Of a stretch of DNA of 64,000 bases, positions 25,690-40,615 are shown piece by piece (the stretch's first letter is position 1; each line of letters starts with the position of its first letter). The stretch comes from Candidatus Woesearchaeota archaeon (GTDB taxonomy: Archaea; Nanobdellota; Nanobdellia; Woesearchaeales; BM511), in NCBI GenBank assembly GCA_002867475.1, contig PKTL01000043.1, positions 16,192 through 80,191 of the forward strand, given 5' to 3'. Made by a program: the position numbers and the translations under genes. Below the pieces are notes generated by a model. The model was given only the letters and a program-made list of their open reading frames with translations. It searched no databases and had not been told where the DNA came from.

Positions 25690-27117
25690 TTATCCTTTTA
25701 TTACACCTAACGGTTTGACTTTTGCTACAAGTTTTCCTATTCCTGCTTCGTGTGAAACTTTCACCACTTCGTCAATATCTTTGTATGCTTCTGGTGCTTC
25801 TTCAACTATTCCTTTTTTAGATGCTGACTTAATATGAATATTATGTGATTCTAGTTCCTTTACTACTTCGTCTGCTTGCATGCTTTTCATCGCTTGGAAC
25901 CTGCTCATCTTTCGCCCTGCTCCATGAGCTGTTGAACCGAATGATTCTTCCATTGCTTTTTCTGTTCCTACTAGTATATAGCTTGATGTTCCCATTGAAC
26001 CTGGCAATAGTATTGGTTGTCCTGTTGGTTTATAGTCTTCTGGGAGTTCAGGTCTGTTTGGTGCGAATGCTCTTGTTGCTCCTTTCCTATGGACTATAAG
26101 TTCCTTTTCTTCTCCGTTTATAGTATGCTTTTCTAGTTTTGCGATGTTATGTGCTACATCATAGACTGTCTTTAAAGTTGCTTCTTTTCCAAATACTTCT
26201 TCAAAACTTTTTCTTACATTGTGTGCTATGATATGTCTGTTTGCCCATGCAAAGTTTGCAGCACCAATCATTGCACTGTAATAATCCTGGCCGAGTTTTG
26301 AACTGAATGGTGCGTAGATAAGATCTTTTTCTGGAAGTTCTTCTATTATATTTGGATACTCGTCTTCCATCTTTCTTAAGTAGTCACTGCATACTTGGTG
26401 ACCTAAGCCTCTACTTCCGCAGTGTATCATTACAACGATCTGGTTCTTTTCTTTTATTCCGAAAACACTTGCTTTTTCTTTATCGTAAATTTCATCTACT
26501 ATCTGCACTTCTAAGAAATGGTTTCCTGCACCTAGTGTTCCTAGTTGCCTTCTTCCTCTTCCTTTGCATTTCATTGAAATCAGTTTTGGGTCGCACCCAG
26601 GCATTGATCCTTCTTCTTCAGAGTGTTTTAAGTCGTCTTCGTTTCCAAAGCCTTGTTCGACTGCCCATCTCGCACCGTTTTTTAGGACTGCGTCTACTTC
26701 GTCGTCTGACAGTTTCATCTCTGATTCGCTGCCTACGCCTGACGGTACATTTTTGAAAAGTGATTCTAGTAAAGGTTCTATTTTTGGTTCTACTTCTTCT
26801 TTTGTTAGATTTGTTGCTAGAAGTCTTACTCCACAATTTATGTCAAAACCGATTCCGCCTGGAGTTATAATTCCTTCTTCTTTGTCGAAAGCTGCCACTC
26901 CACCTATGGAGAAACCGTAGCCCTTATGTGAGTCGGACATCATGATACTTGCTTTCTGTATTCCAGGTAATTTACTTACATTTATTCCTTGAGCTAGCGC
27001 TCCATCCGCTTCTATAGCATCTATTAATTTATCTGACGCGAACACTTTTACAGGGACATTCATATCCTCTTCTTTTTCTACAGTATACATTGAATCAGTG
27101 GTTTTTTCTAGTTTCAT
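25690..27117 (-). CDS. rtcB: RNA-splicing ligase RtcB
   Basis: GSMGTSSYIL and STAHGAGRKMSR motifs; 475 aa. Confidence 0.9.
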   Translation of the reverse strand: MKLEKTTDSMYTVEKEEDMNVPVKVFASDKLIDAIEADGALAQGINVSKLPGIQKASIMMSDSHKGYGFSIGGVAAFDKEEGIITPGGIGFDINCGVRLLATNLTKEEVEPKIEPLLESLFKNVPSGVGSESEMKLSDDEVDAVLKNGARWAVEQGFGNEDDLKHSEEEGSMPGCDPKLISMKCKGRGRRQLGTLGAGNHFLEVQIVDEIYDKEKASVFGIKEKNQIVVMIHCGSRGLGHQVCSDYLRKMEDEYPNIIEELPEKDLIYAPFSSKLGQDYYSAMIGAANFAWANRHIIAHNVRKSFEEVFGKEATLKTVYDVAHNIAKLEKHTINGEEKELIVHRKGATRAFAPNRPELPEDYKPTGQPILLPGSMGTSSYILVGTEKAMEESFGSTAHGAGRKMSRFQAMKSMQADEVVKELESHNIHIKSASKKGIVEEAPEAYKDIDEVVKVSHEAGIGKLVAKVKPLGVIKG

Positions 27118-27165: not shown

Positions 27166-28034
27166 TTATTTTAGAATTTTCTTCTTTTTCATATCAAGAT
27201 TATTATTTTTAGACATTACTGTTCTTCCTATTCTTTTTTCTATACTTTTTCTTGTTTCATTTGCTACTTCTCCACCTTCTTTAGCAGATTCGTTACATTC
27301 ATCAAAACCTTGAGAATCATTTTCTATTGTTATATCAGTTGTAGCTTTTTCACCAACCATAGTTAGTATCAATTCCCAATCATTCACACATGAAGACTAT
27401 AAGTCTTCAGTGCACAGAAGAATACTAATTCTTCTTGTGTGTGATCTCTTAAGTTCTGCTTTTTTAATTTTTTAAAATCCTTATATTCTCCAACAGTTTT
27501 ACCAAATGTTGCTTTACTAATTTCATTTGTCAATATTGCGAATTCATTTTCGTTTTTTACATCTCTATTTTTCCATTCGTCGGTTAATTCTTGTCTTATT
27601 ACAATACCTCTTAATCTTTTATCTATCCACTCTTTTGGATATCCTTTTAATTCATAATATTCTTTGATTCTATCTTGACCCAATTCAGGATTTTCTATCT
27701 CTTGTATTCTTTCATAACCTGTTTTAGCTAACCATTGTTTGAAAGGTTCAGCTTTTTTTGAAGGAATCGATTGAATTATACGAAAAAGATTCTTTGTATT
27801 TGCACAATCAGTAAAATAAGATTTTCCATCTGAAGAAGATAATTTCAGTTGTACCCAAATTGGGGACAACTCAAGCACTTTAAATTCTCTATCTTTAACT
27901 TTTCCCCAATATTGTCTTGGCTTGGGACTTTCAGTTAAAACTTCAACAACATCAACTATTGAGAAATACCATTCATCATTGAACCAAATCCTTCTAATGT
28001 TCTTATCTTGGAAAACTATTATTTTATCATTCAT
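27166..28034 (-). pseudogene. DinD-like Bro-N (KilA-N superfamily) gene split into 216-aa and 73-aa pieces
   Basis: N-terminal Bro-N domain (IRRIWFNDEWYFSIVDVVEVL); C-terminal ILTNEISKATFG ... NLRDH, then a stop. The remainder (ELILTMVGEKATTD ... GGEVANETRK ... VMSKNN) continues in another frame with a 4-nt overlap. Hairpin gaagactATAagtcttc at the junction. Confidence 0.5.
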
Positions 28035-28230: not shown

Positions 28231-29037
28231 ATGAAGAAAAAACTAGTTACTTTAGCAGCAATCACAGCTTTTGGTGCTACACCAGCTGTTGCTTTAGATC
28301 AAGAAGAAATCGACGCAATGTTTTCTGCTCCTAACGCTCCAAAACAAGAAGAAGTTATGGGAATAGCACAAAAAGGCGGACTTATAGACATCGTAACAAA
28401 AGATAATAAGATTCTAAGATTCAATGATGAATGGACAACTCTACAAGATGCAAATGGAGGAGATTATCACACTCTTGGTGCAACAGGAGTTACAAGAACA
28501 AAAAAGACCTCATTCTCAGATCCTGAAGATGTATTCACAGTAAGTGATTATGGACTTGACCAATCAAAAGTTGATGAAAACGGACAACTATCCCTTTTTG
28601 CTTCATACCTTATTGATGGACCTGCAAAGATTGATGGAATATCCGCAGCTACCAATCCTAGAAAAGATGGATATGATTTTTTAGTATTATCAGAAGGTAA
28701 CCTATACGAATCAAACATGGTTGATGGAGTACTAGTTGTTGACACAACACCAGTTGACAGTATTGACGCAGCAGTTGTTGGTTTTGACAACATGAACGGC
28801 GGAAAAAGAGCAACAGTCACAAACAATGATTACACACTGACTAAAGAAAAAGACGGCAGAGTTATCTTTGAAAGAAGCACAGACCTACAACCAGGAGAAA
28901 CAGAATATCCAATAATCATCGCACCAGGAGAAGCTTGCAGTCTTGACTTGATTGCAGCAGGAGAACAAGCATGCCAAGATGGATATGTTTGCAAAGCAAA
29001 TGATTATCCAATAAAATACAACTGCTTATTAGAATAA
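28231..29037 (+). CDS. Secreted protein with C-terminal 4-Cys module
   Basis: AGGTGA RBS; signal peptide MKKKLVTLAAITAFGATPAVA; C-terminus GEACSLDLIAAGEQACQDGYVCKANDYPIKYNCLLE. Confidence 0.6.
   Translation: MKKKLVTLAAITAFGATPAVALDQEEIDAMFSAPNAPKQEEVMGIAQKGGLIDIVTKDNKILRFNDEWTTLQDANGGDYHTLGATGVTRTKKTSFSDPEDVFTVSDYGLDQSKVDENGQLSLFASYLIDGPAKIDGISAATNPRKDGYDFLVLSEGNLYESNMVDGVLVVDTTPVDSIDAAVVGFDNMNGGKRATVTNNDYTLTKEKDGRVIFERSTDLQPGETEYPIIIAPGEACSLDLIAAGEQACQDGYVCKANDYPIKYNCLLE
28981..29037 (+). repeat. 57-nt exact direct repeat (copy 1) encoding GYVCKANDYPIKYNCLLE plus stop
   Basis: Identical to 29231..29287. Confidence 0.9.
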
Positions 29038-29068
29038 AAATATGAAACAATTTTGGAGGAAACACGAA

Positions 29069-29287
29069 ATGAAATTTTTTGCAATATTTATGTTAATACT
29101 TAGCTTTTTAGCTAGTTTTTTTGGACCAGTAGATTCACCAACAGGAGAGGTTATAGTTAATCCAGAACCTGCACCTATTGAAGCTGGAGAAATCTGTGAC
29201 CCAAATGACTCAAATCAAATTTGTGAAGAAGGATATGTTTGCAAAGCAAATGATTATCCAATAAAATACAACTGCTTATTAGAATAA
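29069..29287 (+). CDS. Small secreted cysteine-rich protein (~72 aa) sharing the C-terminal module
   Basis: GGAGG RBS 10 nt upstream of ATG 29069; signal/TM MKFFAIFMLILSFLASFFG; C-terminus EICDPNDSNQICEEGYVCKANDYPIKYNCLLE. Confidence 0.55.
   Translation: MKFFAIFMLILSFLASFFGPVDSPTGEVIVNPEPAPIEAGEICDPNDSNQICEEGYVCKANDYPIKYNCLLE
29231..29287 (+). repeat. 57-nt exact direct repeat (copy 2)
   Basis: Identical to 28981..29037. Confidence 0.9.
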
Positions 29288-29369
29288 TTACTTATCTAAT
29301 AAGTATTTTTTCTTTATTTTACTTATCATAATCGATATTTTTATATATTATTACTTATTTAATAAGTAT
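29288..29369 (+). promoter_or_regulatory. Three phased TTACTTAT-containing sites; two are full palindromes (TTACTTATCTAATAAGTAT, TTACTTATTTAATAAGTAT). Candidate operator
   Basis: Sites at 29288, 29319 and 29351, spaced 31-32 nt; the last ends 3 nt before the ATG of the HTH gene. Confidence 0.45.
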
Positions 29370-29371
29370 TT

Positions 29372-29668
29372 ATGACTGGTCAAGGAGATGATATTAGAGA
29401 TAAATTCAATTCTTTAGTTAGTAATCTCCAAAAATTAGGGTTTTCTTTTGATGAAATACTTTCCATGATGAGTTCTGATTTTGAATCTGATAAAACCCTT
29501 ATTCCCTTAGAAGTATTTCGAACCCGAGACCTTGGAGCGCTTGAAAGCTTAACTGTTTTTCTAAAAGAGAAAAAGGACATGAAATTCTCTGAAATAGGCA
29601 AAGCCTTGGAAAGAGATCAAAGAACTATCTGGACAACATACAATAAAGCAAAGAAGAAACTAGAATGA
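29372..29668 (+). CDS. Sigma-70 region 4-like / LuxR-type HTH DNA-binding protein
   Basis: IPLEVFRTRDLGALESLTVFLKEKKDMKFSEIGKALERDQRTIWTTYNKAKKKLE matches the sigma70_r4 pattern; ATGA overlap with the giant gene. Confidence 0.55.
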   Translation: MTGQGDDIRDKFNSLVSNLQKLGFSFDEILSMMSSDFESDKTLIPLEVFRTRDLGALESLTVFLKEKKDMKFSEIGKALERDQRTIWTTYNKAKKKLE

Positions 29669-32600
29669 GAACCAATAAAACCATAATCAAAATATTGATG
29701 ATTCTTCTAGTTAGTGTTATCTTTTCTCAAATAGGTTTGAGTTTTAATTTCAATTGCACTTCAGATAGTGTTCTAACAGAATTTAGTGGATCTGACACTG
29801 TGAATTGGATTATTGAAAATGATACTATATGTGAAAATGTATACATTGAACTTTCAAGAAATATTACAATAAGTACAAATGGAAGATTAGAATTTAGAAA
29901 TGTAACACTTGACATGAATGTTTTAGGAAATGATGGAAATATAGGAATAGAAGTTGAACCAAATAGCAATGGAATATTCATTTATGATTCAAGAATTCAA
30001 AGTATGACAGCTAATAATTATTTCTGGATTGTGAATCAAAGTTTTATAATGGATAGAACTAATGTAAGTAATTGTGGATATGCAATACCTAGCAATAACC
30101 CTGGAATAAATTTATTTTATGGAAATTCAAAAATTAATAATTCTAAAATAAATGAAGGTTTCATCAATTTATATATTAATTCAGAAAATAATACTATTGA
30201 GAATACACAAATATCAGATTCGAATTATTATCCAATCTTCTTTGCAACATCCAATAATAAAATAATAAATTCAAACATTACTAATGGAACAAGAGGTATT
30301 TATTTTGATTCTAATGTAAATAACATTACTATTAATAAAATAATTATAAAAGATATTTCTAGTTCCGCATATTATCTTGAATTCACTAATAATGACCAAA
30401 TATTAATTAATAATTCTATAATTAATATTACAAGTATAAATCATGGAATTTATGACTCGGCAAATACTTTAAAATTAACAATTATAAATTCGAAAATTGA
30501 TAATAATTTTGATAAAAAAAGTATCACAATAGATAACGAATTTTCAAATATTAAAATATATAATTCTACTATTGATAAAAATAAAATTACCATAACAGGA
30601 ACTCAAGCCAATATCACATTCAAGGAATATGTTAATTTTCATGTTAATGGATCTGATGGAGCTGATTATTTGAATGATGTTGTTGTGAAGTTATATGATA
30701 ATAGCACTAATTCATACGGACCAACAGCAAATTATACATTAACAACTGGAACACCCTATGATCCAGGTTACACTGCGATGCTTACAGTTATAGATATGAT
30801 AATGTATAATGGATATAACACCTCATACAGCCCATACAATGTTACATTCAACAAAACAGGTTATAAGTTCTATTGGAACAATAGTTATTTCTTCAACAAA
30901 TCAGAAACGCATTACGTAACCCTTGACCCAATAACACCTCTAACATGTGAGGGATTATTTTCTGATAATGGAAATGTTATAATCACTGAAGACTTAACTT
31001 GTGAAAACTTAACAATAATAGCACAAAACGTTACAGTCAACAACAGTGCAAGGTTGATATTGAAAAACACCACGCTAATAATAAATGAAACAGCCATAGG
31101 ACATCCATCAATAATCAATATAACAAATGAAGCAGCAGGTATTGAATTACAAAACAGTACGATAAAAGGTCTTAATGATAATGATTATGATTTTATATCT
31201 TATTCAAATACATTAATAAATCATAGTTTAATAAAAGATGTTGGCAGTTCAACAACTATAAATGGATTACATATATACACAAATAATGCGATTATCATAA
31301 ATTCTAGATTTGAAAATAATTATGAAGACCTAGTATTAAAAGGAGATAACTTTACATTAGAAAATCTTGAACTCATAAACTCATACAATAACGGAATAAG
31401 AATTGGAGCTGATTCATTTAATCCTTTAACAAATAGTAAATTCAAAAATATAAGTATAAATAGTTCAGGAAAAGGAATAATAATACAGGATAATTCAAAT
31501 AATCATTATTTTGAAAAATTATTTATAACAAATGATGAAATTGACACAGGAGAGGTATTAATATCCTTAAACAAAGCATATAATTTAACTTTTAATGATT
31601 CAATTTTTAACATATCACAATCTACTGGAAGCAGTGCATTTTCTATTGATTTTAATTCTGCTAATTTTACATTAATAAATTCAAAAATCTATAATCTTGG
31701 AGAAAGTGCAACCGAAATAAAACTCATTGGAAATTCATTTATTAATATAATAAACTCTTCTTTTGATAGATCAAAGATAGAATATGTTTCTTTCACAGGG
31801 AATATCTCTTTCTATGAATATATTAAATTTAAGATATATAATGACAGTGTCTATACAGAGGCGTTATTTGATGTTAACCTAACCTTGAAAGACAACATAT
31901 CCAAAAATGAAAAATATAATCTTACAACTGATGAAAGTGGTTACACAAACACCATTTTAGTTCTTGATGGAGTTGGAAACAGCTCATATGATGGAGTGCA
32001 TTATAATTATGCATACAGCCCTTATAATATAACCTTTGAAAAGGAAGGTTACATTACTAAAAACTTAACTTTCTACCTTAATGAATCAACAACTTTTGAA
32101 GCTAACATATCAATGATAGCTGAACCATCTTCAGATTACATTTTAGTGGAACTGATCAATCCTATAACTATAAGTGAGAACAAGACACCTACAGTTACGT
32201 TCAAGGTTAATGGGAGCATGACAGGATACTTTAATTGCTCATTAAGAACAAATATCACAGGTCATGATTATGAATATAATGAAAGTGTGGTAAATAATAC
32301 TCCTACAAGCCTAACCTTTGCTACTGACTTACCTACAGGATCCCATAAGTATTGGGTTAACTGCTCAAATAATGAGATAAATAATGTTTCAAATAACATA
32401 ACATTATTGATTGTTGAAGAGAACCCTTCAATAAACTTGTTAAGCCCAAAAAATAATAACGTAACAACAAATACTAGCCAAATATTCACTTTTAATTTCA
32501 CAGATACTTATTCAAGTACGGCAAACTGTTCGCTTATAATAAACGGATCCATATACAGGTATAACAGCACTGTTTTGAACAACACACCAACAGATATAAA

Positions 32601-35600
32601 CCAGGAATTAAGTATTGGAAACTATAACTGGACTATTAACTGTACAGACATATATGGTAATATTGGAAGCGATGATGGAAGAAACCTGACAATAGAAGCG
32701 TTAGATCAAACAGGACCAACACCGATAACCTATTCACCAACAACTGGCACAAGTAGAGAATATGATAAATACAGGCAAGATTATTTCAATGTTACATGGA
32801 CAGATATTAGTGGAATAGAAAATGTAAGAATCTATAATAATTTTTCAAATGGAATATGGAATAATTATGAAGTTTCTAACATCAGCAACTCATATTATTA
32901 TAATACCACTAATATCAAACCAGGAAGATATGCTTGGTATATGAATGCAAGTGATACAGAAGGAAACTCGAACTGGACAGGATACATAGATTATATAATA
33001 ACAAAAAGCACAAACGATCAATTGATATTAACAATAAATGGAACAGAATCAAGCACCCCATTTTTGCAAAGAAAAACTTCTCTTTGGATAAATGGTTCAA
33101 GCAATAACCAAGACATAGGATTGACACTTTTTGTAGATTATGAAAATTTGAGCTATGGAATAAATGTCAGCAACTTTTATTTTTTCAATGAATCAGGATT
33201 GAAGATTGTTAATTTAACAATGGATGCAAATGATAGATTTGAAATAACGAATAAAGTTCTTACAGTCCAAGTTAATGACACTATCCCTCCAGCAAAGATA
33301 AATAATCTTCAAGCAACCCACATAACTTATGATATGATAAACTGGACATGGACACTTCCATCAGGAGAGGATGATATCAATAAGGCTGAAGTTTGGATAG
33401 ATGGAGAGCTAGTTGAAAACATAACGAACCCTTATGGACAAACCTATTTCGATTACTCAACCACTCAAAACACACTTGTTAATATTAGTGTTAGACTAGT
33501 GGATGATTATAATAATACTGGCGAAGAATTTAATACGTCTAATAGGACATTAAGGATAAATTATGCTCCAACAACATACTTAGAAAAACCAGATAACAAC
33601 ACCCAGATAAATAATAGTTTGAGTGTTACTTTCAATTTCACAGCATATGATGAGCTTCCCATCTATTTAAATTGCTCATTAAAAGTTATGGATAATATAG
33701 ATAGTAATATAACAATCTTTAACTTATCAGCCTATAGCGGAACACCTAGAATCTATACAAATAGTTCAATATTTTCATATAATCATTCATACTCTTGGTC
33801 TGTGAACTGTACAGATGGTGAATATTATAATATCTCAGACACATATTATTTCAACATAGCAGACACTTTACCTCCTGCAAAGATAAATAATCTTACTAAC
33901 TTAACTGGAGACAGTTGGATATATATCACTTGGTACAATCCTTCTACTGATTTCAATCACACAGAAGTTTGGTTTAATGATTCATATTATGACACTTTTA
34001 ATGACACATATCAAACCTTAAACATTACAGGATTGGATGACAATACAATTTATAATTTTAACATCACAGCGTATGACATATATAATAATGGTAACACAAC
34101 ATTGTTTAATATAACTACTGAAGTTGGGGATTATTCTGCCCCCTATATCAACTATCCTCAAATGCCTGAAAGTGGAACAATAACAAATAATGAAAGCGTG
34201 ATTTTCAATATCACTGCAAGTGATGATTCAGGAGGAACAATATCCTGTAATCTTACAATATATAATTCATCATCAACCATGATTGAATCCCAAACATTGA
34301 ACATATTAAGCGGCACATATGGATCAACAACTGTAAATCTTCCTGATGGAGAATATCATTGGAATTTTACCTGTGTTGATTATGATAGCAATCAAGCAAA
34401 TAGCACAACCTACCTATTGACTGTTGATACAACTCCACCATTTTATAGCGACCTATGGAATAATACTGATGGAGGATCAACATTTAATGAATCATATGAT
34501 TATCTTTTCAAGATCAGATGGAATGATACGATTACAGAAATTACAAATGTTTGGTTCGAAAACAACTTAACAAATAATCCTCTAGTAAATAGCACACCTT
34601 CACAAAATGGAAACTTATACACATATTCACCATCTACACCTCTTAAGCCAGGAACATATGCATATAAATGGTATGCAAGAGACAATGCAAATAATTTCAA
34701 TAATACAGAACTATTCACATTCACAATCAATAAAGCTGAACCAGCCTTAATGCTAAAATTAGATGGATCAGAACAGAACATCACTTATCTTGAAAGAAAG
34801 GATAACGTGACAGTTTATGCAATGATCACTAAGCCTAGCACAGAAACAATAACTGTGACATTACAGAACAGCTCAGGAACTTTTAGCATAGATCAATATA
34901 CAACCTTGCAATTTAATGAAGTAGGAATCTCAAACATCACTGCATCTTTTGAAGGAAACGAAAATTACACATCAAAAAACATAACGTATTATGTGAATGT
35001 TTCTGATAATGTAGGGCCTGAAGATGTGGTTATAGATCAAACAGTTATTACTACTTCTTATTTTTTCATACAATGGAATGATTCAACATCTGATGATTTC
35101 AATCATACAGAAGTATTGATAGATAATATTAATTATGACCATGGAGCTGATACTTTTATTAACCTTAATACTCCATCAGAGACAGAATATGAAGTGCTTA
35201 TAAGACATTTTGATATATATGGAAATAATGGTTCATGGACAAATATCACAATAACTACATTATCAAACATTCCAAGTATAGAATTATTATATCCAACAGA
35301 TTATTTGCTCATAAGCAACATGAAATCTGTTAATCTAACATTCAATGTCACAGATGAATCAGATTATGTTAATTGCACAGCTTATATTTATGGAAGAACT
35401 AATACATCCTTCTCAAAAACATATAACAATCTCTACACACAGGTTGGAACCCCTTATACTTTCAATACAGGAGAAATATTAGAATATAACAATACCTATA
35501 ATTGGTCAGTAAATTGTAGCGATCCTTACAATTACAGTGTTTCAAACACCCAAGCTTTTGGTATTATAGATACAAATCCTCCAATAATATCAAACATCAA

Positions 35601-38600
35601 CATCTATAACATAACAGATTCCAGCGCGATAATCAATTGGACAACAAACGAACCTTCAAACTATAGCATTGAACTAAAAGACATTCCAAGAATAGACTTT
35701 TCAACACTTGATACAACTCATGCTAGACTGATAGAAGGATTATCACCTTCAACATATTATGATATCAACATAACAGCATGTGACCTATATAATAATTGCA
35801 TAAAAGATGATTCAAAAAATCTGACAACAACCAATTTCGTATATGATATTTCAGTATCTTTGATCAACCCAATAGCTGATGCTTGGATACCCTATAACAA
35901 CAACATAACTTTTAATTTTTCAGTGAATGGAAATGTTGAGATAATGAGCTGTAACCTATCTATTGATGATAACAGAAGCGAATACTTCAACAAGATAAAT
36001 ACAACAATAGAAAATTATAGTACAACCTTCTACAATCTAGAATTTAAATACCATAATTGGAGCGTTACCTGCAATCATTCTGATAATGTATGGAGCGATA
36101 TTAGATATTTCAACCTAACAAACGATTACGATAACGACACTTATAATATTGGAACAGGAACAAATGAAGACTGTGATGATACAAACCCAAATATACACCC
36201 AGGAGTTGCAGATAACACAGATGATAATATAGATAACGATTGTGATGGAGACATTGATGAAGATTATAGTCCACCAAGTTCTAGTGGAGGAGGAAGCGTA
36301 AGTTTGCCTCCTGAAGAAGAAATTATTGAAGAAGAACCAAAAAATGAAACCGTTGAAGAAATAATAAATGAAACAATTGAGATAACTGAAGAGATTCCAG
36401 GAATAATAAATGAGACAAATGAGACTTCTGTTTGGGATTTCATAAATGAAAGCATAAATTTGTTCAATGAAACAGATATACCTGAAGAGATAAATGAAAC
36501 TGTTGAAGAAATCAAAAATGAAACAATTGAAGAAATCATAAATGAAACAATAGTAATAGAAAATGATGATAACTCAACAGATACTGATGATGAGTTGGTT
36601 GAGAAAAATGAATCGATATTTGAACTTCCTTCAAAACTTGATCTTGAAACTCCAAAAAAGGAAGCTGAAACACCTGATGAGAAAAAGGAGAAATCCACTA
36701 GTTCAGGAATAACTGGAATAACTGATAGGATAGGTGTAAAAAAGGAATATTACCATAAAGAAAATAATACTGTCATAAATTTCACGATAAAAAATAAAGG
36801 TATAGTGCCTTACAAAAAACTTGGCATTTTCATAAATATACCAAAATTCATAGCTGAAAGCACTGATAAGATGATAGGTAATTTCTATATAATCAGAAAA
36901 GATCCACAGATAGCTTATGTTTTCACAAATTTTAGCGGAAAAACATCAAAGACTATAGAGTTTCAAATAAAAGACAGACTTCTTAGTGATGAAGAGATTG
37001 AAAAGATCACATACTATACTAATTCAGAGATATCAAAGGAATATGTAGATTCCTTGAAAAAGAAAGCAAACGAGACGTACGATGCTATTAAGATTAAAAA
37101 AGAGATAATCCAATATGATGATAAGACAGAGTTCACAATAGAGCTTGAACCTATAAACGAGACAGAGAACGTCACATTATATTTGGATATTCCTAAATGC
37201 TTAGCTGAAAAGATCGAAGAGATAGAATTCGAACTAGAAGATTATGAGATCCTTGATGATGACCCTTTAATAGCATTTAATTTTGCAACCCTAACTGACA
37301 CTAAAACCTTGAATTTTGAAGTGTTAAAAGCAATCGACCCAGATTGCTGGGAGCTAGTAAAAACCACACCGATCGCTGAAAAGATAAAAGATAAGATAAT
37401 TGTAAAAGATGAGAAAAGCATGTTCTTCTCTATTGGCATCCTTCTTTTTGTACTCTTATCTACACTATCATTCAACTATTTGCAAATGCAAAGCAAGAAA
37501 AAGCATGGTAAAGGAATATTAGAAAAACTTGAATTTGGAATGGTCGAAATAATCTTAATACTAATAATAACTCTTAACATAATGGATTTCTTCAAGCTTC
37601 TAAATCCGGATCTTGATTTTGCAAAAAAGATTCTTTCATGGTCTCTTCTTGGAATACTTCTATATGAAGCAAGGCTTGAAAAAATATTTTATGGCACTGA
37701 AAGAAGATTTGAAACCTTACTTTTAATTATCGCTAATTTCTTCATGTTCTCAAGAGTGTTTGTTGATGTAGTCTTTGTATTATATAATGAGATTGTTGAG
37801 AAAAGGCTTGATTCATATGTTATTCACCTATATCAATTCGTGATTGACTTTGAACTTTCCCACCCTGGATTAATTGTAAGCATCGGAAGCATCATAGGAT
37901 TTAGTATGTTAATAATCCTTTCCTTCCTTGATGTTTTCAAAAATGTGAAGAAACCGAGCCTGCTTGAAGTACTGCATGTTGATGGAAAACCGAAAGGAAT
38001 AGGACAAGGTATCAAGAGATTCCTTATAAGTATGATGCTTTACTTGACATTTTTCATAGTGTTCTTCAATTTCTTCATGGAATGGCTTGCTATAAGTGTT
38101 GATGCTGCATTGATGGTTGTTGCAATAGTAGTATATGGAATAAGGTTTATAGTTAAGCAATATCATCATTACCATGAGGATCATATAATAAACAAGATAG
38201 GTAATATAGGTGAAGAATTTTATGAACAGTTCATAAATCTTTTCAAGTACAAGCACACAGTTTTCTTTGGCCTTGCTGGAATACTTGTACTTCACTTAAT
38301 AGTTGATATTGGAAATTTCATAATGCCTTTCATATTCAATTTTGAAGACATGATGTATTTCATACAAAGCGGAGTACCACACTTAAGCCTTCTTCATATA
38401 CTGATGAATCTTTATAGCCAAGATATATTAGCAAACATTGTCATAACCCTAAATTATTTGCTAAATATAAGTTTCATAATAATGATTTTGATATTCCCAG
38501 CATACATCTGGTATGACACATATAAGAATCATATAATAAATTTTAGAAGGTGGATCGTCGCATTTTTTTACATCGCAGTATCTAACTATCTAATCTCCCC

Positions 38601-39204
38601 TCTAGTGAAACTATCAAGCATAAGCAATGCTGACATATTAGGTGTTGATCTAATATTCAAGTCAAGCGTTACAGGCGATCCTTTGATGACACTACTAATA
38701 AGCATAGGTGTTGGAATAGTTGCATTTATCCTATCTTATAATCTTATATTGAAAACAGTGATAAAACTCATTGGATTTATTCCCGTATTAATATTTATAA
38801 TGATATATGTCACTTATTATGTGAATAGTTGGATAAGCAATCTTTTCCCACAGATTGTTGCTGCTGTTGCTAGTGCTACTTTGATCAATCTTTTCCTAGG
38901 AATACTTATGAGCTTCTTCATGACTGCGATAGTCATATTCTACATAGGTTCATTCATATATTTCATAAAACTCATATACACTCAATGGTTCGTGAAAAAA
39001 TATGCTTTTGCACACCTTGCAAAAAAATACAAGGATGTTATAAAAGAGCACTGCAAGACAGATCAAGATAAGCAAGTGATCTATAAAGCGATAAAATACA
39101 TTGAGTATATGAGGAAAAGAGAAGTGTCTGACCTTGAGATTGAAGAAACTTTAGCAAATAAAGGTATGAAAGAAGAAGTGATAAAGGACATCATATACCT
39201 ATAA
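29665..39204 (+). CDS. Giant (3179 aa) membrane-anchored surface protein: signal peptide, parallel beta-helix (PbH1) repeats, FN3-like domains, Cys-rich D/C motif, acidic NET repeats, C-terminal polytopic membrane domain
   Basis: Uninterrupted 9.5 kb ORF. N-terminus MRTNKTIIKILMILLVSVIFSQIGLSF. NxxIxNN-type beta-helix repeats (NSKINNSKINEGFINLYINSENNTIENTQISDS ... NGIRIGADS ... GKGIIIQDNSNN). Numerous N-x-S/T sequons. FN3-like PPAKINNL ... WTWTLP segments. DCDDTNPNIHPGVADNTDDNIDNDCDGDIDED at nt 36169-36267. EEIINETIE repeats. About 12 or more TM helices from nt ~37420. Confidence 0.85.
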   Translation: MRTNKTIIKILMILLVSVIFSQIGLSFNFNCTSDSVLTEFSGSDTVNWIIENDTICENVYIELSRNITISTNGRLEFRNVTLDMNVLGNDGNIGIEVEPNSNGIFIYDSRIQSMTANNYFWIVNQSFIMDRTNVSNCGYAIPSNNPGINLFYGNSKINNSKINEGFINLYINSENNTIENTQISDSNYYPIFFATSNNKIINSNITNGTRGIYFDSNVNNITINKIIIKDISSSAYYLEFTNNDQILINNSIINITSINHGIYDSANTLKLTIINSKIDNNFDKKSITIDNEFSNIKIYNSTIDKNKITITGTQANITFKEYVNFHVNGSDGADYLNDVVVKLYDNSTNSYGPTANYTLTTGTPYDPGYTAMLTVIDMIMYNGYNTSYSPYNVTFNKTGYKFYWNNSYFFNKSETHYVTLDPITPLTCEGLFSDNGNVIITEDLTCENLTIIAQNVTVNNSARLILKNTTLIINETAIGHPSIINITNEAAGIELQNSTIKGLNDNDYDFISYSNTLINHSLIKDVGSSTTINGLHIYTNNAIIINSRFENNYEDLVLKGDNFTLENLELINSYNNGIRIGADSFNPLTNSKFKNISINSSGKGIIIQDNSNNHYFEKLFITNDEIDTGEVLISLNKAYNLTFNDSIFNISQSTGSSAFSIDFNSANFTLINSKIYNLGESATEIKLIGNSFINIINSSFDRSKIEYVSFTGNISFYEYIKFKIYNDSVYTEALFDVNLTLKDNISKNEKYNLTTDESGYTNTILVLDGVGNSSYDGVHYNYAYSPYNITFEKEGYITKNLTFYLNESTTFEANISMIAEPSSDYILVELINPITISENKTPTVTFKVNGSMTGYFNCSLRTNITGHDYEYNESVVNNTPTSLTFATDLPTGSHKYWVNCSNNEINNVSNNITLLIVEENPSINLLSPKNNNVTTNTSQIFTFNFTDTYSSTANCSLIINGSIYRYNSTVLNNTPTDINQELSIGNYNWTINCTDIYGNIGSDDGRNLTIEALDQTGPTPITYSPTTGTSREYDKYRQDYFNVTWTDISGIENVRIYNNFSNGIWNNYEVSNISNSYYYNTTNIKPGRYAWYMNASDTEGNSNWTGYIDYIITKSTNDQLILTINGTESSTPFLQRKTSLWINGSSNNQDIGLTLFVDYENLSYGINVSNFYFFNESGLKIVNLTMDANDRFEITNKVLTVQVNDTIPPAKINNLQATHITYDMINWTWTLPSGEDDINKAEVWIDGELVENITNPYGQTYFDYSTTQNTLVNISVRLVDDYNNTGEEFNTSNRTLRINYAPTTYLEKPDNNTQINNSLSVTFNFTAYDELPIYLNCSLKVMDNIDSNITIFNLSAYSGTPRIYTNSSIFSYNHSYSWSVNCTDGEYYNISDTYYFNIADTLPPAKINNLTNLTGDSWIYITWYNPSTDFNHTEVWFNDSYYDTFNDTYQTLNITGLDDNTIYNFNITAYDIYNNGNTTLFNITTEVGDYSAPYINYPQMPESGTITNNESVIFNITASDDSGGTISCNLTIYNSSSTMIESQTLNILSGTYGSTTVNLPDGEYHWNFTCVDYDSNQANSTTYLLTVDTTPPFYSDLWNNTDGGSTFNESYDYLFKIRWNDTITEITNVWFENNLTNNPLVNSTPSQNGNLYTYSPSTPLKPGTYAYKWYARDNANNFNNTELFTFTINKAEPALMLKLDGSEQNITYLERKDNVTVYAMITKPSTETITVTLQNSSGTFSIDQYTTLQFNEVGISNITASFEGNENYTSKNITYYVNVSDNVGPEDVVIDQTVITTSYFFIQWNDSTSDDFNHTEVLIDNINYDHGADTFINLNTPSETEYEVLIRHFDIYGNNGSWTNITITTLSNIPSIELLYPTDYLLISNMKSVNLTFNVTDESDYVNCTAYIYGRTNTSFSKTYNNLYTQVGTPYTFNTGEILEYNNTYNWSVNCSDPYNYSVSNTQAFGIIDTNPPIISNINIYNITDSSAIINWTTNEPSNYSIELKDIPRIDFSTLDTTHARLIEGLSPSTYYDINITACDLYNNCIKDDSKNLTTTNFVYDISVSLINPIADAWIPYNNNITFNFSVNGNVEIMSCNLSIDDNRSEYFNKINTTIENYSTTFYNLEFKYHNWSVTCNHSDNVWSDIRYFNLTNDYDNDTYNIGTGTNEDCDDTNPNIHPGVADNTDDNIDNDCDGDIDEDYSPPSSSGGGSVSLPPEEEIIEEEPKNETVEEIINETIEITEEIPGIINETNETSVWDFINESINLFNETDIPEEINETVEEIKNETIEEIINETIVIENDDNSTDTDDELVEKNESIFELPSKLDLETPKKEAETPDEKKEKSTSSGITGITDRIGVKKEYYHKENNTVINFTIKNKGIVPYKKLGIFINIPKFIAESTDKMIGNFYIIRKDPQIAYVFTNFSGKTSKTIEFQIKDRLLSDEEIEKITYYTNSEISKEYVDSLKKKANETYDAIKIKKEIIQYDDKTEFTIELEPINETENVTLYLDIPKCLAEKIEEIEFELEDYEILDDDPLIAFNFATLTDTKTLNFEVLKAIDPDCWELVKTTPIAEKIKDKIIVKDEKSMFFSIGILLFVLLSTLSFNYLQMQSKKKHGKGILEKLEFGMVEIILILIITLNIMDFFKLLNPDLDFAKKILSWSLLGILLYEARLEKIFYGTERRFETLLLIIANFFMFSRVFVDVVFVLYNEIVEKRLDSYVIHLYQFVIDFELSHPGLIVSIGSIIGFSMLIILSFLDVFKNVKKPSLLEVLHVDGKPKGIGQGIKRFLISMMLYLTFFIVFFNFFMEWLAISVDAALMVVAIVVYGIRFIVKQYHHYHEDHIINKIGNIGEEFYEQFINLFKYKHTVFFGLAGILVLHLIVDIGNFIMPFIFNFEDMMYFIQSGVPHLSLLHILMNLYSQDILANIVITLNYLLNISFIIMILIFPAYIWYDTYKNHIINFRRWIVAFFYIAVSNYLISPLVKLSSISNADILGVDLIFKSSVTGDPLMTLLISIGVGIVAFILSYNLILKTVIKLIGFIPVLIFIMIYVTYYVNSWISNLFPQIVAAVASATLINLFLGILMSFFMTAIVIFYIGSFIYFIKLIYTQWFVKKYAFAHLAKKYKDVIKEHCKTDQDKQVIYKAIKYIEYMRKREVSDLEIEETLANKGMKEEVIKDIIYL

Positions 39205-40216: not shown

Positions 40217-40615
40217 CTATAAATCCATGACCATTATCACATGATCATCTGCATATTCGAAGTCATTATAAGTTATTGCTTTTATGTGCCCATGGGTTTC
40301 GTAGTTCTTGTATGAATCGCCAACTACTGTTGCTTTCACATTATTATCTTTTACTTCAATGCTTAAAACTTTATTCAATACGAAATCTTCAACGTCATGA
40401 TAATATAATAGTTCATCAAGAAAATCATATAGTAAGCCTCGTAGATTCTTTGCTTCAACTTCAATAGATATCTCTTTTACTGGTTTAACCTCTTTAGGAT
40501 TCACGATTATTCCAAACATTGCATATGCACAGTTCTCAAACTTCTCAGAGTCATTTCTTCCATATGCTTTGAACTTTGCGTCAGCAGTATGAGTCAAGTA
40601 TTCATATCTCATCAA
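40217..40615 (-). CDS. Archease (RtcB cofactor)
   Basis: YEYLTHTADAKFKAYG and HGHIKAITY motifs; 132 aa. Confidence 0.8.
   Translation of the reverse strand: MMRYEYLTHTADAKFKAYGRNDSEKFENCAYAMFGIIVNPKEVKPVKEISIEVEAKNLRGLLYDFLDELLYYHDVEDFVLNKVLSIEVKDNNVKATVVGDSYKNYETHGHIKAITYNDFEYADDHVIMVMDL

Follow-up and report, generated by a model that had tools for sequence, protein, structure and literature searches.

A putative two-gene operon of a Woesearchaeon encodes exported proteins with a shared, apparently gene-converted four-cysteine C-terminal module

The DNA analysed here, a stretch of 64,000 nucleotides from a Candidatus Woesearchaeota archaeon that is referred to as the window, carries two adjacent genes for proteins with predicted export signals on its plus strand. 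The first of them (28231..29037, +, locus tag C0585_03260) has an ATG start and the Shine-Dalgarno sequence AAGGTGAT, and encodes an exported protein of 268 aa that is identical to P0001. This 27-kDa, beta-rich large protein is built from an orphan body rich in beta structure, followed by a Pro/Gly linker and, at the C-terminus, a module with four cysteines. It has no family in Pfam, NCBIfam, PHROG or PADLOC, and Pfam and PDB profile searches with its body returned nothing. The dN/dS of 0.31 against the ortholog at L001 argues that this is a real coding gene. Its N-terminus (28231..28299, +) reads as a Sec-type signal peptide, MKKKLVTLAAITAFGATPAVA followed by LDQ, with a KKK n-region, a 12-residue h-region and an AxA site. 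The A-x-A-LDQ motif is kept in four of five homologs, the exception being P0005 with AQA-ADF, and we infer cleavage between AVA and LDQ. The module of the large protein, defined with alignments A3 and A5, spans 28927..29034 (+), reads GEACSLDLIAAGEQACQDGYVCKANDYPIKYNCLLE, and is the best-modelled part of the AF2 model, in which the body has a pLDDT of 41.

The second, small gene (29069..29287, +) encodes a mini-protein of 72 aa that begins with a hydrophobic export signal or anchor and continues with a DSPTGEV motif, a Pro-rich linker and a four-cysteine module of its own (29186..29284, +; GEICDPNDSNQICEEGYVCKANDYPIKYNCLLE; Cys43, Cys52, Cys58 and Cys69), for which a beta-hairpin is predicted at residues 56-61 and 66-71. 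The gap between the large and the small gene is only 31 nt, which argues that the two form one operon. The small gene has its own ribosome-binding site GGAGG (29055..29059, +) nine nucleotides upstream. The intergenic region and this site are conserved in L001, and in L004 the small gene likewise has a GGAGG in front of it. The hydrophobic stretch at the N-terminus holds 16-17 residues without a clear AxA site, and a conserved FG[GP][VI]D motif comes after it; the mature peptide is strongly acidic (11 D/E against 2 K by sequence count). Homologs of the small protein are P0003 and P0004, and the N-terminal 28 codons have a dN/dS of 0.09 against L001. It had been proposed from the letters that the small protein is related to the tail of the large one, and alignment A6 supports this, as the small protein aligns with the counterpart of the last ~50 residues of the large protein. 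The stretch shared by both holds a D-x2-[PT]-G-[EDG]-[VT] motif, the Pro-rich linker and the module. Hence, the small gene seems to be an ancient, partial paralogue of the large gene's tail, equipped with an export signal of its own.

The 3' ends of the two genes are the same. Positions 28981..29037 (+, large gene, encoding GYVCKANDYPIKYNCLLE plus the stop) and 29231..29287 (+, small gene) are identical at 57 of 57 nt, stop codon included, and a longer match of 62 nt with one mismatch links 28976-29037 to 29226-29287, the copies lying 250 nt apart. A search allowing up to 3 mismatches found only these two copies in the 64-kb window, against 0.00 expected in 100 shuffles, and no further ORF within the window ends in a comparable four-cysteine tail. 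Upstream of the identical tract both modules diverge, including a 3-residue indel in loop 1, and only the beta-hairpin half of the module is homogenised between the two genes. These data bear out most of what the sequence-only reading had described, namely two adjacent ORFs of 268 and ~72 aa with secretion signals (28231-29037 and 29069-29287) and 57-nt 3' ends that are identical below differing upstream sequences. Its four-cysteine tails also stand, but the spacing that it gave does not: the large protein ends in C-x11-C-x5-C-x10-C-LLE and the small one in C-x8-C-x5-C-x10-C-LLE, so that the second cysteine is followed by x2-GYVC and not by x4-GYVC.

Downstream of the pair, a palindrome TACTTATCTAATAAGTA followed by a T-run (29289..29320, +) can form a terminator-like hairpin together with the final codons of the small gene. 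The fold z-score for 29210-29320 is -3.9, and the two-gene operon probably ends at this hairpin. The palindrome occurs a second time as TACTTATTTAATAAGTA (29352..29368, +), directly 5' of the start of an HTH gene, where it is likely an operator. The window holds two such sites only, against 0.01 expected, and the second copy is conserved in L001 and L004. The HTH gene (29372..29668, +) encodes a weakly sigma-70 region-4-like protein of 98 aa, whose ortholog in L004 is 62% identical, and its stop overlaps the start of a giant gene (29665..39204, +). The product of the latter is a surface protein of 3179 aa with a signal peptide, many Ig/fn3-like repeats, a MopE-type motif and, at the C-terminus, a polytopic membrane domain; in L004 an orthologous giant ORF of 2806 aa takes the same position. 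Its Ig/fn3-like repeats carry many paired cysteines and N-glycosylation sequons, and these cysteines make extracellular disulfides plausible here, even though the habitat is probably anoxic. A copy of the shared module was looked for in the giant protein and none was found. The gene pair adjoins the HTH and giant genes at both loci that are long enough to show synteny. Thus, the earlier placement of both genes directly upstream of an HTH-giant operon is confirmed, and the synteny extends to a distant Woesearchaeon (L004).

The large-protein family is very rare, with 5 members in a search library that represents about 15 billion proteins. A metagenome scan with the large protein gave no further loci, genome scans yielded no contig other than that of L004, which was already known, and a word-indexed protein search returned known members only. 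Likewise, nothing was found in a viral scan or by phage tblastn, whereas a metagenome scan based on the HTH protein gave two loci with other surface proteins and no gene pair. In the literature, no description of the gene pair or the module in DPANN archaea was found.

Flanking genes could be read at three loci: the window, L001 (a strain with a 70%-identical large protein) and L004 (a Woesearchaeon with a 32%-identical one). At 3/3 of them the large and the small protein carry near-identical C-terminal modules, and the module sequence differs in each genome. In L001 both proteins share GSVCYSDSECLSNSCTDKNLYDGIDKKTCD, with a match of ~95 nt that holds 2 differences, both synonymous. In L004, where the small gene comes first and the large one second, the two proteins have GAECTVD[E/A]DCLSNSCVYTFDPTTGDPGYFCN in common, with a match of ~105 nt and 1 difference. 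Differences inside the identity tracts are mostly synonymous (T/C, C/T and A/C), and the tracts stop where the paralogous homology stops, at the stop codon or ~10 nt beyond. The identical tract of the window covers 18 codons, in which 0 of about 9.7 synonymous sites differ; the corresponding values at the other two loci are 2/16.3 and 0-1/21.5. Between the window and L001, the orthologous dS reaches 0.57 in the body of the large protein and 0.36 in the N-terminus of the small one. Gene conversion had been among the suggestions made on the basis of the 57-nt identity, and this proposal is strengthened by the contrast of 0/~9.7 synonymous differences with a sister-strain dS of 0.36-0.57 and by the recurrence of within-genome identity at two other loci. 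Judged from these comparisons, recurrent gene conversion between both genes keeps the module nucleotide-identical within a genome.

Between genomes the picture is reversed. The flanks of the window and L001 are 92-96% identical, the large body is 60-88% identical, and the modules fall to 32-54% per 50-column window, which is about the level of unrelated sequence. Divergence covers the operon of the large and the small gene together with its promoter, and the flanks on both sides are conserved. The alignments thus present the operon as a fast-diverging block, of which the module is replaced outright. As a point against a functional reading of the match, gene conversion together with allelic replacement of the whole operon could yield matched pairs without selection for matching.

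Two classes of module can be told apart, class A with C-x8/11-C-x5-C-x10/14-C and class B with C-x5-C-x4-C-x13/15-C. The modules of the window belong to class A, and A-A module identity is 44%. The bodies of P0001 and P0002 are 74% identical and those of P0006 and P0007 40%, and each of these pairs sets a class-A against a class-B module. The two classes are ancient, and their distribution is discordant with the body phylogeny. Taken with the matched pairs, this discordance points to concerted evolution by gene conversion and to an exchange of modules between lineages. As the usable loci are three and the large homologs five, the 'always matched' rule and the A/B discordance rest on few observations.

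The fold of the module was approached through structure prediction. In the AF2 model of the small protein the module has a pLDDT of 85-93, and its top Foldseek matches in the PDB are ICK toxins (TM-score normalised to target 0.65-0.74, rmsd 2.1-2.7 A), with cystine-knot spider toxins among the best. Foldseek probabilities reach 0.96, but the E-values of 0.2-1, usual for mini-proteins, are not significant. Other matches are CBM1 (ranks 20 and 39) and the colipase/Dickkopf/Draxin/omega-atracotoxin group (ranks 10, 42 and 45), and a BFVD search gave nothing useful. No family reached the Pfam gathering threshold. For two class-A modules CBM_1 was the sole Pfam match, with E-values of 0.016 (the module of the large protein) and 0.038, whereas neither the small protein of the window nor the class-B modules matched it. 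Class B has sub-threshold Pfam matches to omega-atracotoxin and colipase (E 0.01-0.02; PDB profile E 1-9). The confident model and its likeness to cystine-stabilised mini-proteins are consistent with the earlier suggestion of a disulfide-stabilised module.

A true knottin is ruled out, since knottins have three disulfides and six cysteines spaced C-x3-7-C-x3-8-C-x0-7-C-x1-4-C-x4-13-C (PMC4942781) and all eight modules have only four cysteines. With only four, the module is knottin-like at most and fits a two-disulfide beta-hairpin (DDH) better. The DDH consensus, reportedly given by Wang et al. in 2000 as C-x5-19-C-x2-[G/P]-x2-C-x6-19-C, fits class A, both in the large protein of the window (C-x11-C-QDGYV-C-x10-C) and in the small one (C-x8-C-EEGYV-C-x10-C), and it fits P0006 as well (C-x11-C-HEGYS-C-x14-C). 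Class B lacks the G/P at the position and is no strict DDH fit. The module is most likely a DDH-type hairpin, knottin-like and with two putative disulfides; the DDH fold is defined by the connectivity C1-C3 and C2-C4 (PMC11891777). As in DDH-type toxins, the module has four cysteines, and the strands of its predicted beta-hairpin would carry C3 and C4. Unlike those toxins, the module is archaeal and acidic and, instead of being a free venom peptide, forms the C-terminus of larger exported proteins, and class B is without the G/P position. Single-domain DDH peptides had been regarded as limited to arachnids, plus one sea-star case (PMC11891777), and no knottins had been found in Archaea as of 2017 according to the KNOTTIN database (PMC5753296). 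If the fold prediction holds, the DDH/knottin-like, CBM1-like mini-protein fold class would extend to Archaea.

The module also resembles CBM1 (PF00734), essentially a fungal family, in having about 36 aa and four cysteines. The cysteine spacing is nearly the same (C-x10-C-x5-C-x9-C-x1 in CBM1 and C-x11-C-x5-C-x10-C-x3 here), and the module is likewise joined to a larger secreted protein by a Pro-rich linker and also occurs nearly alone. CBM1 binds crystalline cellulose with a flat face of three aromatic residues. Several tyrosines stand on the hairpin of the module, with Tyr56, Tyr63 and Tyr67 in or beside its predicted strands. However, the conserved CGG and QC motifs of CBM1 are absent and there is no glycoside hydrolase context. 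Membership in CBM1 is not established, as the scores of 15.5 and 14.3 bits remain below the gathering score of 20.6 bits. Class B shares the local motif G-x-x-C-x5-C-x-S/G-x-x-C with colipase, Dickkopf, Draxin and omega-atracotoxin in weak matches; those domains differ in having 5-6 disulfides or a true knot, and all matches are non-significant.

Other systems resemble the pair in their architecture. The same small module on several exported proteins, presumably to bring them to one target, is also found with the dockerins of cellulosomal enzymes, with CBM1 across fungal cellulases and with cell-wall-binding repeats, and the homogenisation of shared modules by recombination is a known process. 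Unlike the dockerin and CBM1 sets, there are only two genes here, one partner consists of hardly more than the module, identity reaches synonymous sites, and the module, of two ancient classes, is swapped wholesale between strains. The sequence-only reading had held that the tail is not a PGF-CTERM anchor, and the results agree. A PGF-CTERM signal consists of a C-terminal signature motif, a hydrophobic transmembrane helix and a basic tail. The archaeosortase-type anchor was rejected here, as the tail ending in GYVCKANDYPIKYNCLLE is polar and acidic, has no hydrophobic helix and gave no NCBIfam sorting-signal match. A DGR was also rejected, for a scan of the neighbouring genes showed no RT, the mismatches are not restricted to adenines, and each copy is the coding end of a gene that is translated separately.

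Taken together, the locus is read as a two-gene operon for predicted exported proteins that share a C-terminal four-cysteine mini-domain of ~30-40 residues. The module would be a two-disulfide, knottin-like DDH hairpin that shares its fold class with CBM1, colipase/Dickkopf and spider toxins, and may serve as a strain-variable extracellular binding or recognition module that directs the 27-kDa beta-rich protein and the mini-protein to one common target. Identity inside each genome combined with complete difference between related genomes is what one would expect of a strain-specific tag for surface recognition or binding. Candidates for the target are structures on the surface of the host or partner cell and the giant surface protein that the archaeon itself encodes nearby. 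The most likely role is that of an extracellular binding module which varies between strains and acts alongside the HTH regulator and the giant surface protein, and we consider it probable that the pair is exported with a gene-converted, strain-variable, DDH-type binding module for a common target. DPANN archaea live attached to other cells, and to our knowledge the molecules that decide the attachment partner are almost unknown. The operon offers a compact, testable candidate for partner specificity. The candidate module is tiny, Cys-rich, identical on two exported proteins within a genome, swapped between even closely related strains, and genetically linked to a giant surface protein and a regulator. 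It also provides a clean case of concerted evolution, in which gene conversion acts on a segment of ~60-105 nt in a very small genome, and its ~33 residues bring chemical synthesis, the mapping of disulfides and screens for binding within reach.

The alternative that survives best is neutral concerted evolution, in which the small gene would be a tandem partial duplicate, conversion would homogenise the alignable parts, differences among strains would come from replacement of the entire operon, and the matching of the tails would be functionless. The limits of the identity tracts, which coincide with the end of paralogous homology, agree with it, as does the divergent block of operon and promoter, through which one recombination event could import both modules; homogenisation of half a module only, as seen in the window, is also in its favour. 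Nevertheless, the small gene is old and maintained, being present at 32% identity, in another gene order, with its own RBS and a low N-terminal dN/dS. Moreover, the pairs are matched at all three loci despite two classes that are discordant with the body phylogeny, and the tract differences are mostly synonymous. We regard the neutral reading as unlikely, if worth serious attention.

A far-reaching version of the binding reading would see in the module the first knottin-like (DDH) domain family in Archaea and a polymorphic recognition determinant of a DPANN symbiont, with two ancient classes and many alleles kept by balancing or diversifying selection, and with the membrane-proximal mini-protein and the secreted beta-rich protein having to share an allele through homotypic docking or the same strain-specific host receptor. 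If true, the operon, attached to the system of the giant surface protein, would determine host range or self/non-self specificity; as a whole this version is doubtful.

Homotypic docking by itself, in which a membrane-anchored small protein would show its module on a Pro-rich stalk and tether the large protein module to module, non-covalently or by disulfide exchange, seems quite improbable. Such tethering implies that both modules must co-vary, in line with the pairs matched in 3/3 genomes, and the N-terminus of the small protein, with its uncleaved look (no clear AxA before FG[GP][VI]D) beside the canonical AxA of the large protein, would suit an anchor. Yet no precedent was found for homodimerising DDH or CBM1-like modules, and in the window the partners do not agree over the first half of the module.

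Still less can be said for a cassette reservoir, in which one gene would donate tail sequence to the other and thereby switch the exposed C-terminus in the style of pilE/pilS or an orphan CT. As in CDI/Rhs and pilE/pilS, a conserved N-terminal part is combined with a replaceable, recombining C-terminal cassette and a second copy nearby, and recombination between both genes is evident. However, the second copy here is a complete, independently translated gene with predicted export and the same cassette; as a single, (nearly) identical alternative it offers no diversity to switch to, and, unlike silent cassettes, it possesses an RBS, a start codon and a conserved export signal on which purifying selection acts. 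Family scans of the neighbourhood found neither a toxin domain nor an immunity-like gene. An orphan CT cassette of a polymorphic toxin was rejected on these grounds, and the reservoir is very improbable.

A secreted toxin, antimicrobial or signalling peptide, that is, a small knottin-like effector on a host membrane protein with the large protein as a related carrier, has hardly any likelihood. The product is small and Cys-rich with predicted export, and its best structural matches are ion-channel toxins, but its strong acidity sets it apart from cationic AMPs and from most channel toxins, the fold class serves diverse functions (the matches also include CBM1, colipase and Dickkopf), and the same tail on a 27-kDa protein is left unexplained.

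The last alternatives, a nucleic-acid element (RNA structure, sRNA target or protein-binding site) or an assembly artefact behind the identity, are effectively refuted, since, despite the stable hairpin (z -3.9) of the small-gene 3' end with the downstream palindrome, the 57-nt tract alone folds with a non-significant z of -1.5 and has no Rfam match, the unrelated nucleotides of the other two genomes still encode in-frame four-cysteine modules, and the repeat is shorter than typical reads, has unique flanks and recurs in an independent assembly. The latter (L002) is a separately assembled JGI contig of the same population with 3 SNPs in 20.2 kb and the same 57-nt repeat, and the assemblies of two other organisms (L001 and L004) have the same arrangement with other sequences. 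The sequence-only reading had named an artefact and a lack of conservation in relatives as what would speak against it; the repeat is present in L002, and matched modules recur at L001 and L004.

Against the main reading, the pair in the window is matched only in part. Loop 1 has 11 residues in one module and 8 in the other, and the D44Y polymorphism sits there, in the first half of the module. As the two modules of the window differ in this half, complete identity is not required.

The last 57 nucleotides of two adjacent open reading frames, at 28981-29037 and 29231-29287, are the same at 57/57 positions including the stop codon, as the sequence-only reading had noticed. The repeat lengthens to 62 nt with one mismatch, its copies are 250 nt apart, and only these two are present in the 64 kb when three mismatches are allowed, where shuffled sequence is expected to hold none. 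The first copy closes the large gene (28231-29037), which has the ribosome-binding site AAGGTGAT and encodes 268 aa with the signal peptide MKKKLVTLAAITAFGATPAVA followed by LDQ; this protein is an exact match to the NCBI entry 'hypothetical protein C0585_03260 [Candidatus Woesearchaeota archaeon]'. The second closes the small gene (29069-29287), which has GGAGG nine nt upstream and encodes 72 aa with a hydrophobic N-terminus. The four-Cys tail described earlier stands, but its spacing needs a small correction, namely C-x11-C-x5-C-x10-C-LLE in the large and C-x8-C-x5-C-x10-C-LLE in the small protein. The two modules diverge 5' of GYVC, with an indel, and no other open reading frame of the window was found to end in a tail of the same sort. 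The repeat is not peculiar to one assembly, because it recurs in L002, a separately assembled JGI contig (54.6 kb) of the same population, and the suspicion of an assembly artefact can be set aside. The window and L002 differ by only three SNPs over 20.2 kb (20439, 29198, and 30566), all of which are nonsynonymous: they change a DUF2238 protein (K166Q), loop 1 of the small-protein module (D44Y), and the giant surface protein (S301Y).

The family of large and small proteins is extremely rare. Among 5.8 billion proteins, a word-indexed search yielded just one homolog per protein, P0002 (258 aa, 70% identical) and P0004 (70 aa), whose genes neighbour each other on a 1.46-kb JGI contig of a sister strain (L001). 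An exhaustive HMMER profile search of 1.84 billion cluster representatives added three large proteins (P0005, P0006, and P0007; E 1e-22 to 1e-16), further metagenome, genome, and viral scans gave no additional homologs, and there were no matches at threshold for these proteins in Pfam, NCBIfam, PHROG, or PADLOC. The matching of modules as a phenomenon is conserved across three genomes. For example, the large and small proteins of L001 share one ending (GSVCYSDSECLSNSCTDKNLYDGIDKKTCD), with a match of ~95 nt and two differences, both synonymous, and in sequence this module bears no relation to that of the window. Similarly, the P0005 locus, on a 16.1-kb contig (L004, also L006) of 'Candidatus Woesearchaeota archaeon isolate DPANNHV_H2.bin.12', has a small gene (70-75 aa) directly upstream of the large gene; the pair shares GAECTVD[A/E]DCLSNSCVYTFDPTTGDPGYFCN, and the match runs for ~105 nt with one difference, the identity continuing ~10 nt beyond the stop. 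Modules are thus matched at all three loci with readable context (the contigs of P0006 and P0007 being too short for neighbours), with a different module sequence in every one, and the doubt raised earlier, that relatives might show no conservation, falls away.

The large-gene bodies of the window and L001 have diverged with dS 0.57, dN 0.18, and omega 0.31, and the first 28 codons of the small genes with dS 0.36 and omega 0.09; hence, both genes are real and under purifying selection. The large protein of L004 is 32-34% identical to that of the window, and as the small gene is present there too, the duplication is older than a divergence that saturates synonymous sites. Against an ortholog dS of 0.36-0.57, the modules within a genome differ at 0 of 9.7 synonymous sites in the window, 2 of 16.3 in L001, and 0-1 of 21.5 in L004, and the probability of so few differences at saturation is ~1e-5 to 1e-11 per locus. 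Such low divergence is explained only by recurrent gene conversion or very recent re-duplication, much as had been proposed from the repeat itself. Gene conversion acts between the large and small genes, and the identity tracts end with the end of paralogous homology, reaching the stop codon or running a few bases past it. As an evolutionary mechanism it is ordinary; the object on which it acts is not.

Alignment of the window with L001 gives 92-96% identity in the flanks (Bro-N gene side and HTH gene side), 60-88% over the whole large and small operon including its promoter, and 32-54% per 50-column window in the module segments, which is about the level of unrelated sequence. Two types of Cys spacing are found among the five large proteins. 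Class A (C-x11-C-x5-C-x10/14-C, motif ..LI..GEQ.C.[DE]GY.CK) includes the window protein (P0001) and P0006, the modules of which are 44% identical, and class B (C-x5-C-x4-C-x13-15-C, motif C..D..C.S..C) includes P0002, P0005, and P0007. The proteins paired by body identity, P0001/P0002 (74%) and P0006/P0007 (40%), are in both cases A versus B; hence, either an old polymorphism crosses lineages or recombinational exchange has occurred at least twice. These comparisons show that the module has been replaced between strains, its two classes being discordant with the body phylogeny.

Alignment beyond the module suggests that the small gene is an old partial paralogue of the large gene, corresponding to the 3' end of the latter, and that it later gained an export signal of its own. 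Upstream of the module, FFGPVDSPTGEV pairs with FERSTDLQPGET in the window, IDMPTGGV lies opposite IDKKTGDV in L004, and a Pro-rich linker comes next in both proteins. So short a resemblance is no more than suggestive, yet it is present in all three genomes, in line with the earlier idea that the small protein is related to the large tail. The small-protein N-terminus, which may be a cleaved signal or a membrane anchor, is a hydrophobic stretch of 16-17 residues without a clear AxA site, and this segment is common to the window and L004.

AF2 modelled the large protein poorly (pLDDT 41 overall), with an all-beta body and the module modelled best. The small protein (8-sequence alignment) reached pLDDT 85-93 over residues 31-72, with a predicted beta-hairpin (56-61 and 66-71) bearing Cys58 and Cys69. 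Foldseek matches of this model in the PDB are almost all cystine-stabilised mini-proteins, led by spider inhibitor cystine knot toxins (6xyh, psalmotoxin 4fz1_D, and J-atracotoxin 1dl0; target-normalised TM-score 0.65-0.74, rmsd 2.1-2.7 Å, probability up to 0.96, E-values 0.2-1) and likewise including Dickkopf, colipase, and CBM1-containing entries. Sequence searches point the same way, though below threshold, with Draxin and Dickkopf appearing in a PDB profile search at E above 1. The sole Pfam match of two class-A modules is CBM_1 (E 0.016 and 0.038; 15.5 and 14.3 bits, below the gathering score of 20.6), and the class-B modules match omega-atracotoxin and colipase below threshold. [quoted passage not shown] 2000. 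A true knottin is ruled out by the four Cys. The module is probably a two-disulfide, knottin-like binding domain, and the many paired Cys in the giant protein's repeats suggest that the organism uses extracellular disulfides. Single-domain DDH peptides were held to be arachnid-only before the sea-star case (PMC11891777), and the KNOTTIN database reports no knottins in Archaea (PMC5753296).

We infer that the module would supply the large and small proteins with one common, strain-specific target. The main rival is a neutral one, in which conversion together with the replacement of whole operons yields the matching as a by-product; homogenisation is incomplete in the window, where loop 1 differs, and full module identity is therefore not essential. 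More specific readings than a common target are homotypic docking, in which the mini-protein is anchored in the membrane and the secreted large protein docks to it; a cassette reservoir; and a toxin-like peptide. A cationic toxin or antimicrobial peptide is at odds with the strongly acidic composition of the peptide. The finding is genuine, and no prior description was found in the libraries and literature searched. It resembles small disulfide-rich binding modules and the concerted evolution of shared targeting domains, and what deserves note is a rare archaeal module, predicted to be knottin-like, that is kept alike on both members of a large/mini protein pair, is swapped between strains, and sits beside a DPANN giant surface protein.

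The pair lies directly upstream of the operon of HTH and giant genes, as read earlier, and this synteny is conserved, L004 keeping the order pair, palindromes, HTH gene, and giant gene. After the small gene, a palindrome with a T-run (29289-29320) could pair with the final codons of that gene into a terminator-like hairpin (z -3.9); the 57-nt tract by itself has no significant fold, and there is no Rfam match. The window holds exactly two copies of the perfect palindrome TACTTAT-N3-ATAAGTA (29289-29305 and 29352-29368, 63 bp apart; 0.01 expected by chance), both of them between the small and HTH genes, the second directly against the start codon of the HTH gene. Since the palindromes are kept in the sister strain (L001 1272-1294 and 1365-1387) and in the distant Woesearchaeon (L004 ~6355-6375 and 6417-6433), they are probably the operator and autoregulatory site of the HTH protein. 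The HTH gene (29372-29668, 98 aa) follows directly, its stop overlapping the giant-gene start (ATGA). The giant gene (29665-39204, + strand) encodes 3179 aa with a signal peptide, a long polytopic C-terminal membrane domain, a MopE-type metal-binding motif (one, at residues 2169-2199), and many Ig/fn3-like repeats that carry paired Cys and dense N-x-S/T sequons. The ORF of its L004 ortholog is 2806 aa long, and only 2509 aa of it were annotated by the source gene caller.

RtcB (25690-27117, - strand) and archease (40217-40615, - strand) are functional partners, and the ~13-kb block between them holds a split Bro-N gene, the large/small pair, the HTH and giant genes, and an ORF6N anti-repressor-like gene (PADLOC PDC-S05). 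With Bro-N and ORF6N (KilA-N-type) genes as its borders, the block is suggestive of an island that is variable or mobile. Neither a reverse transcriptase nor a recombinase is among the genes near the pair. A Bro-N gene is close upstream of the pair in both the window and L004. In the window, its products of 73 aa (27166-27387) and 216 aa (27384-28034), both on the - strand, jointly span one ~280-aa profile (positions 204-273 and 2-214 of PADLOC PDC-S13; phrog_15286 is matched likewise), and hence a frameshift or stop divides the gene. L002 is called with an identical split.

P0006 (L003 672-1619) has two successive signal-peptide-like segments at the N-terminus, both with an A-x-A/LDQ-like site behind them, a pattern suggestive of internal duplication. 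Upstream of its gene, an ORF (L003 53-286) ends in a PEP-CTERM-like tail (PIPSTILLLGTGLSVLVGFNRRK), which would be unexpected in an archaeon and makes the taxonomic origin of this contig uncertain. Homologs of the HTH protein (conserved ...RD[QY][RK]TIWT.YN[KR]...) lie beside other signal-peptide-bearing surface protein genes on unrelated metagenome contigs (L007 3248-3550 and L008 3965-4222), and proteins of this family may regulate operons for DPANN surface proteins in general. In L004 (4138-5078), the stretch from the Bro-N gene to the small/large pair holds a nucleotidyltransferase (NTP_transf_2/Polbeta) gene that overlaps a gene of 136 aa, the product of which has no Pfam match; both are absent from the window, and the arrangement looks like a toxin-antitoxin pair.
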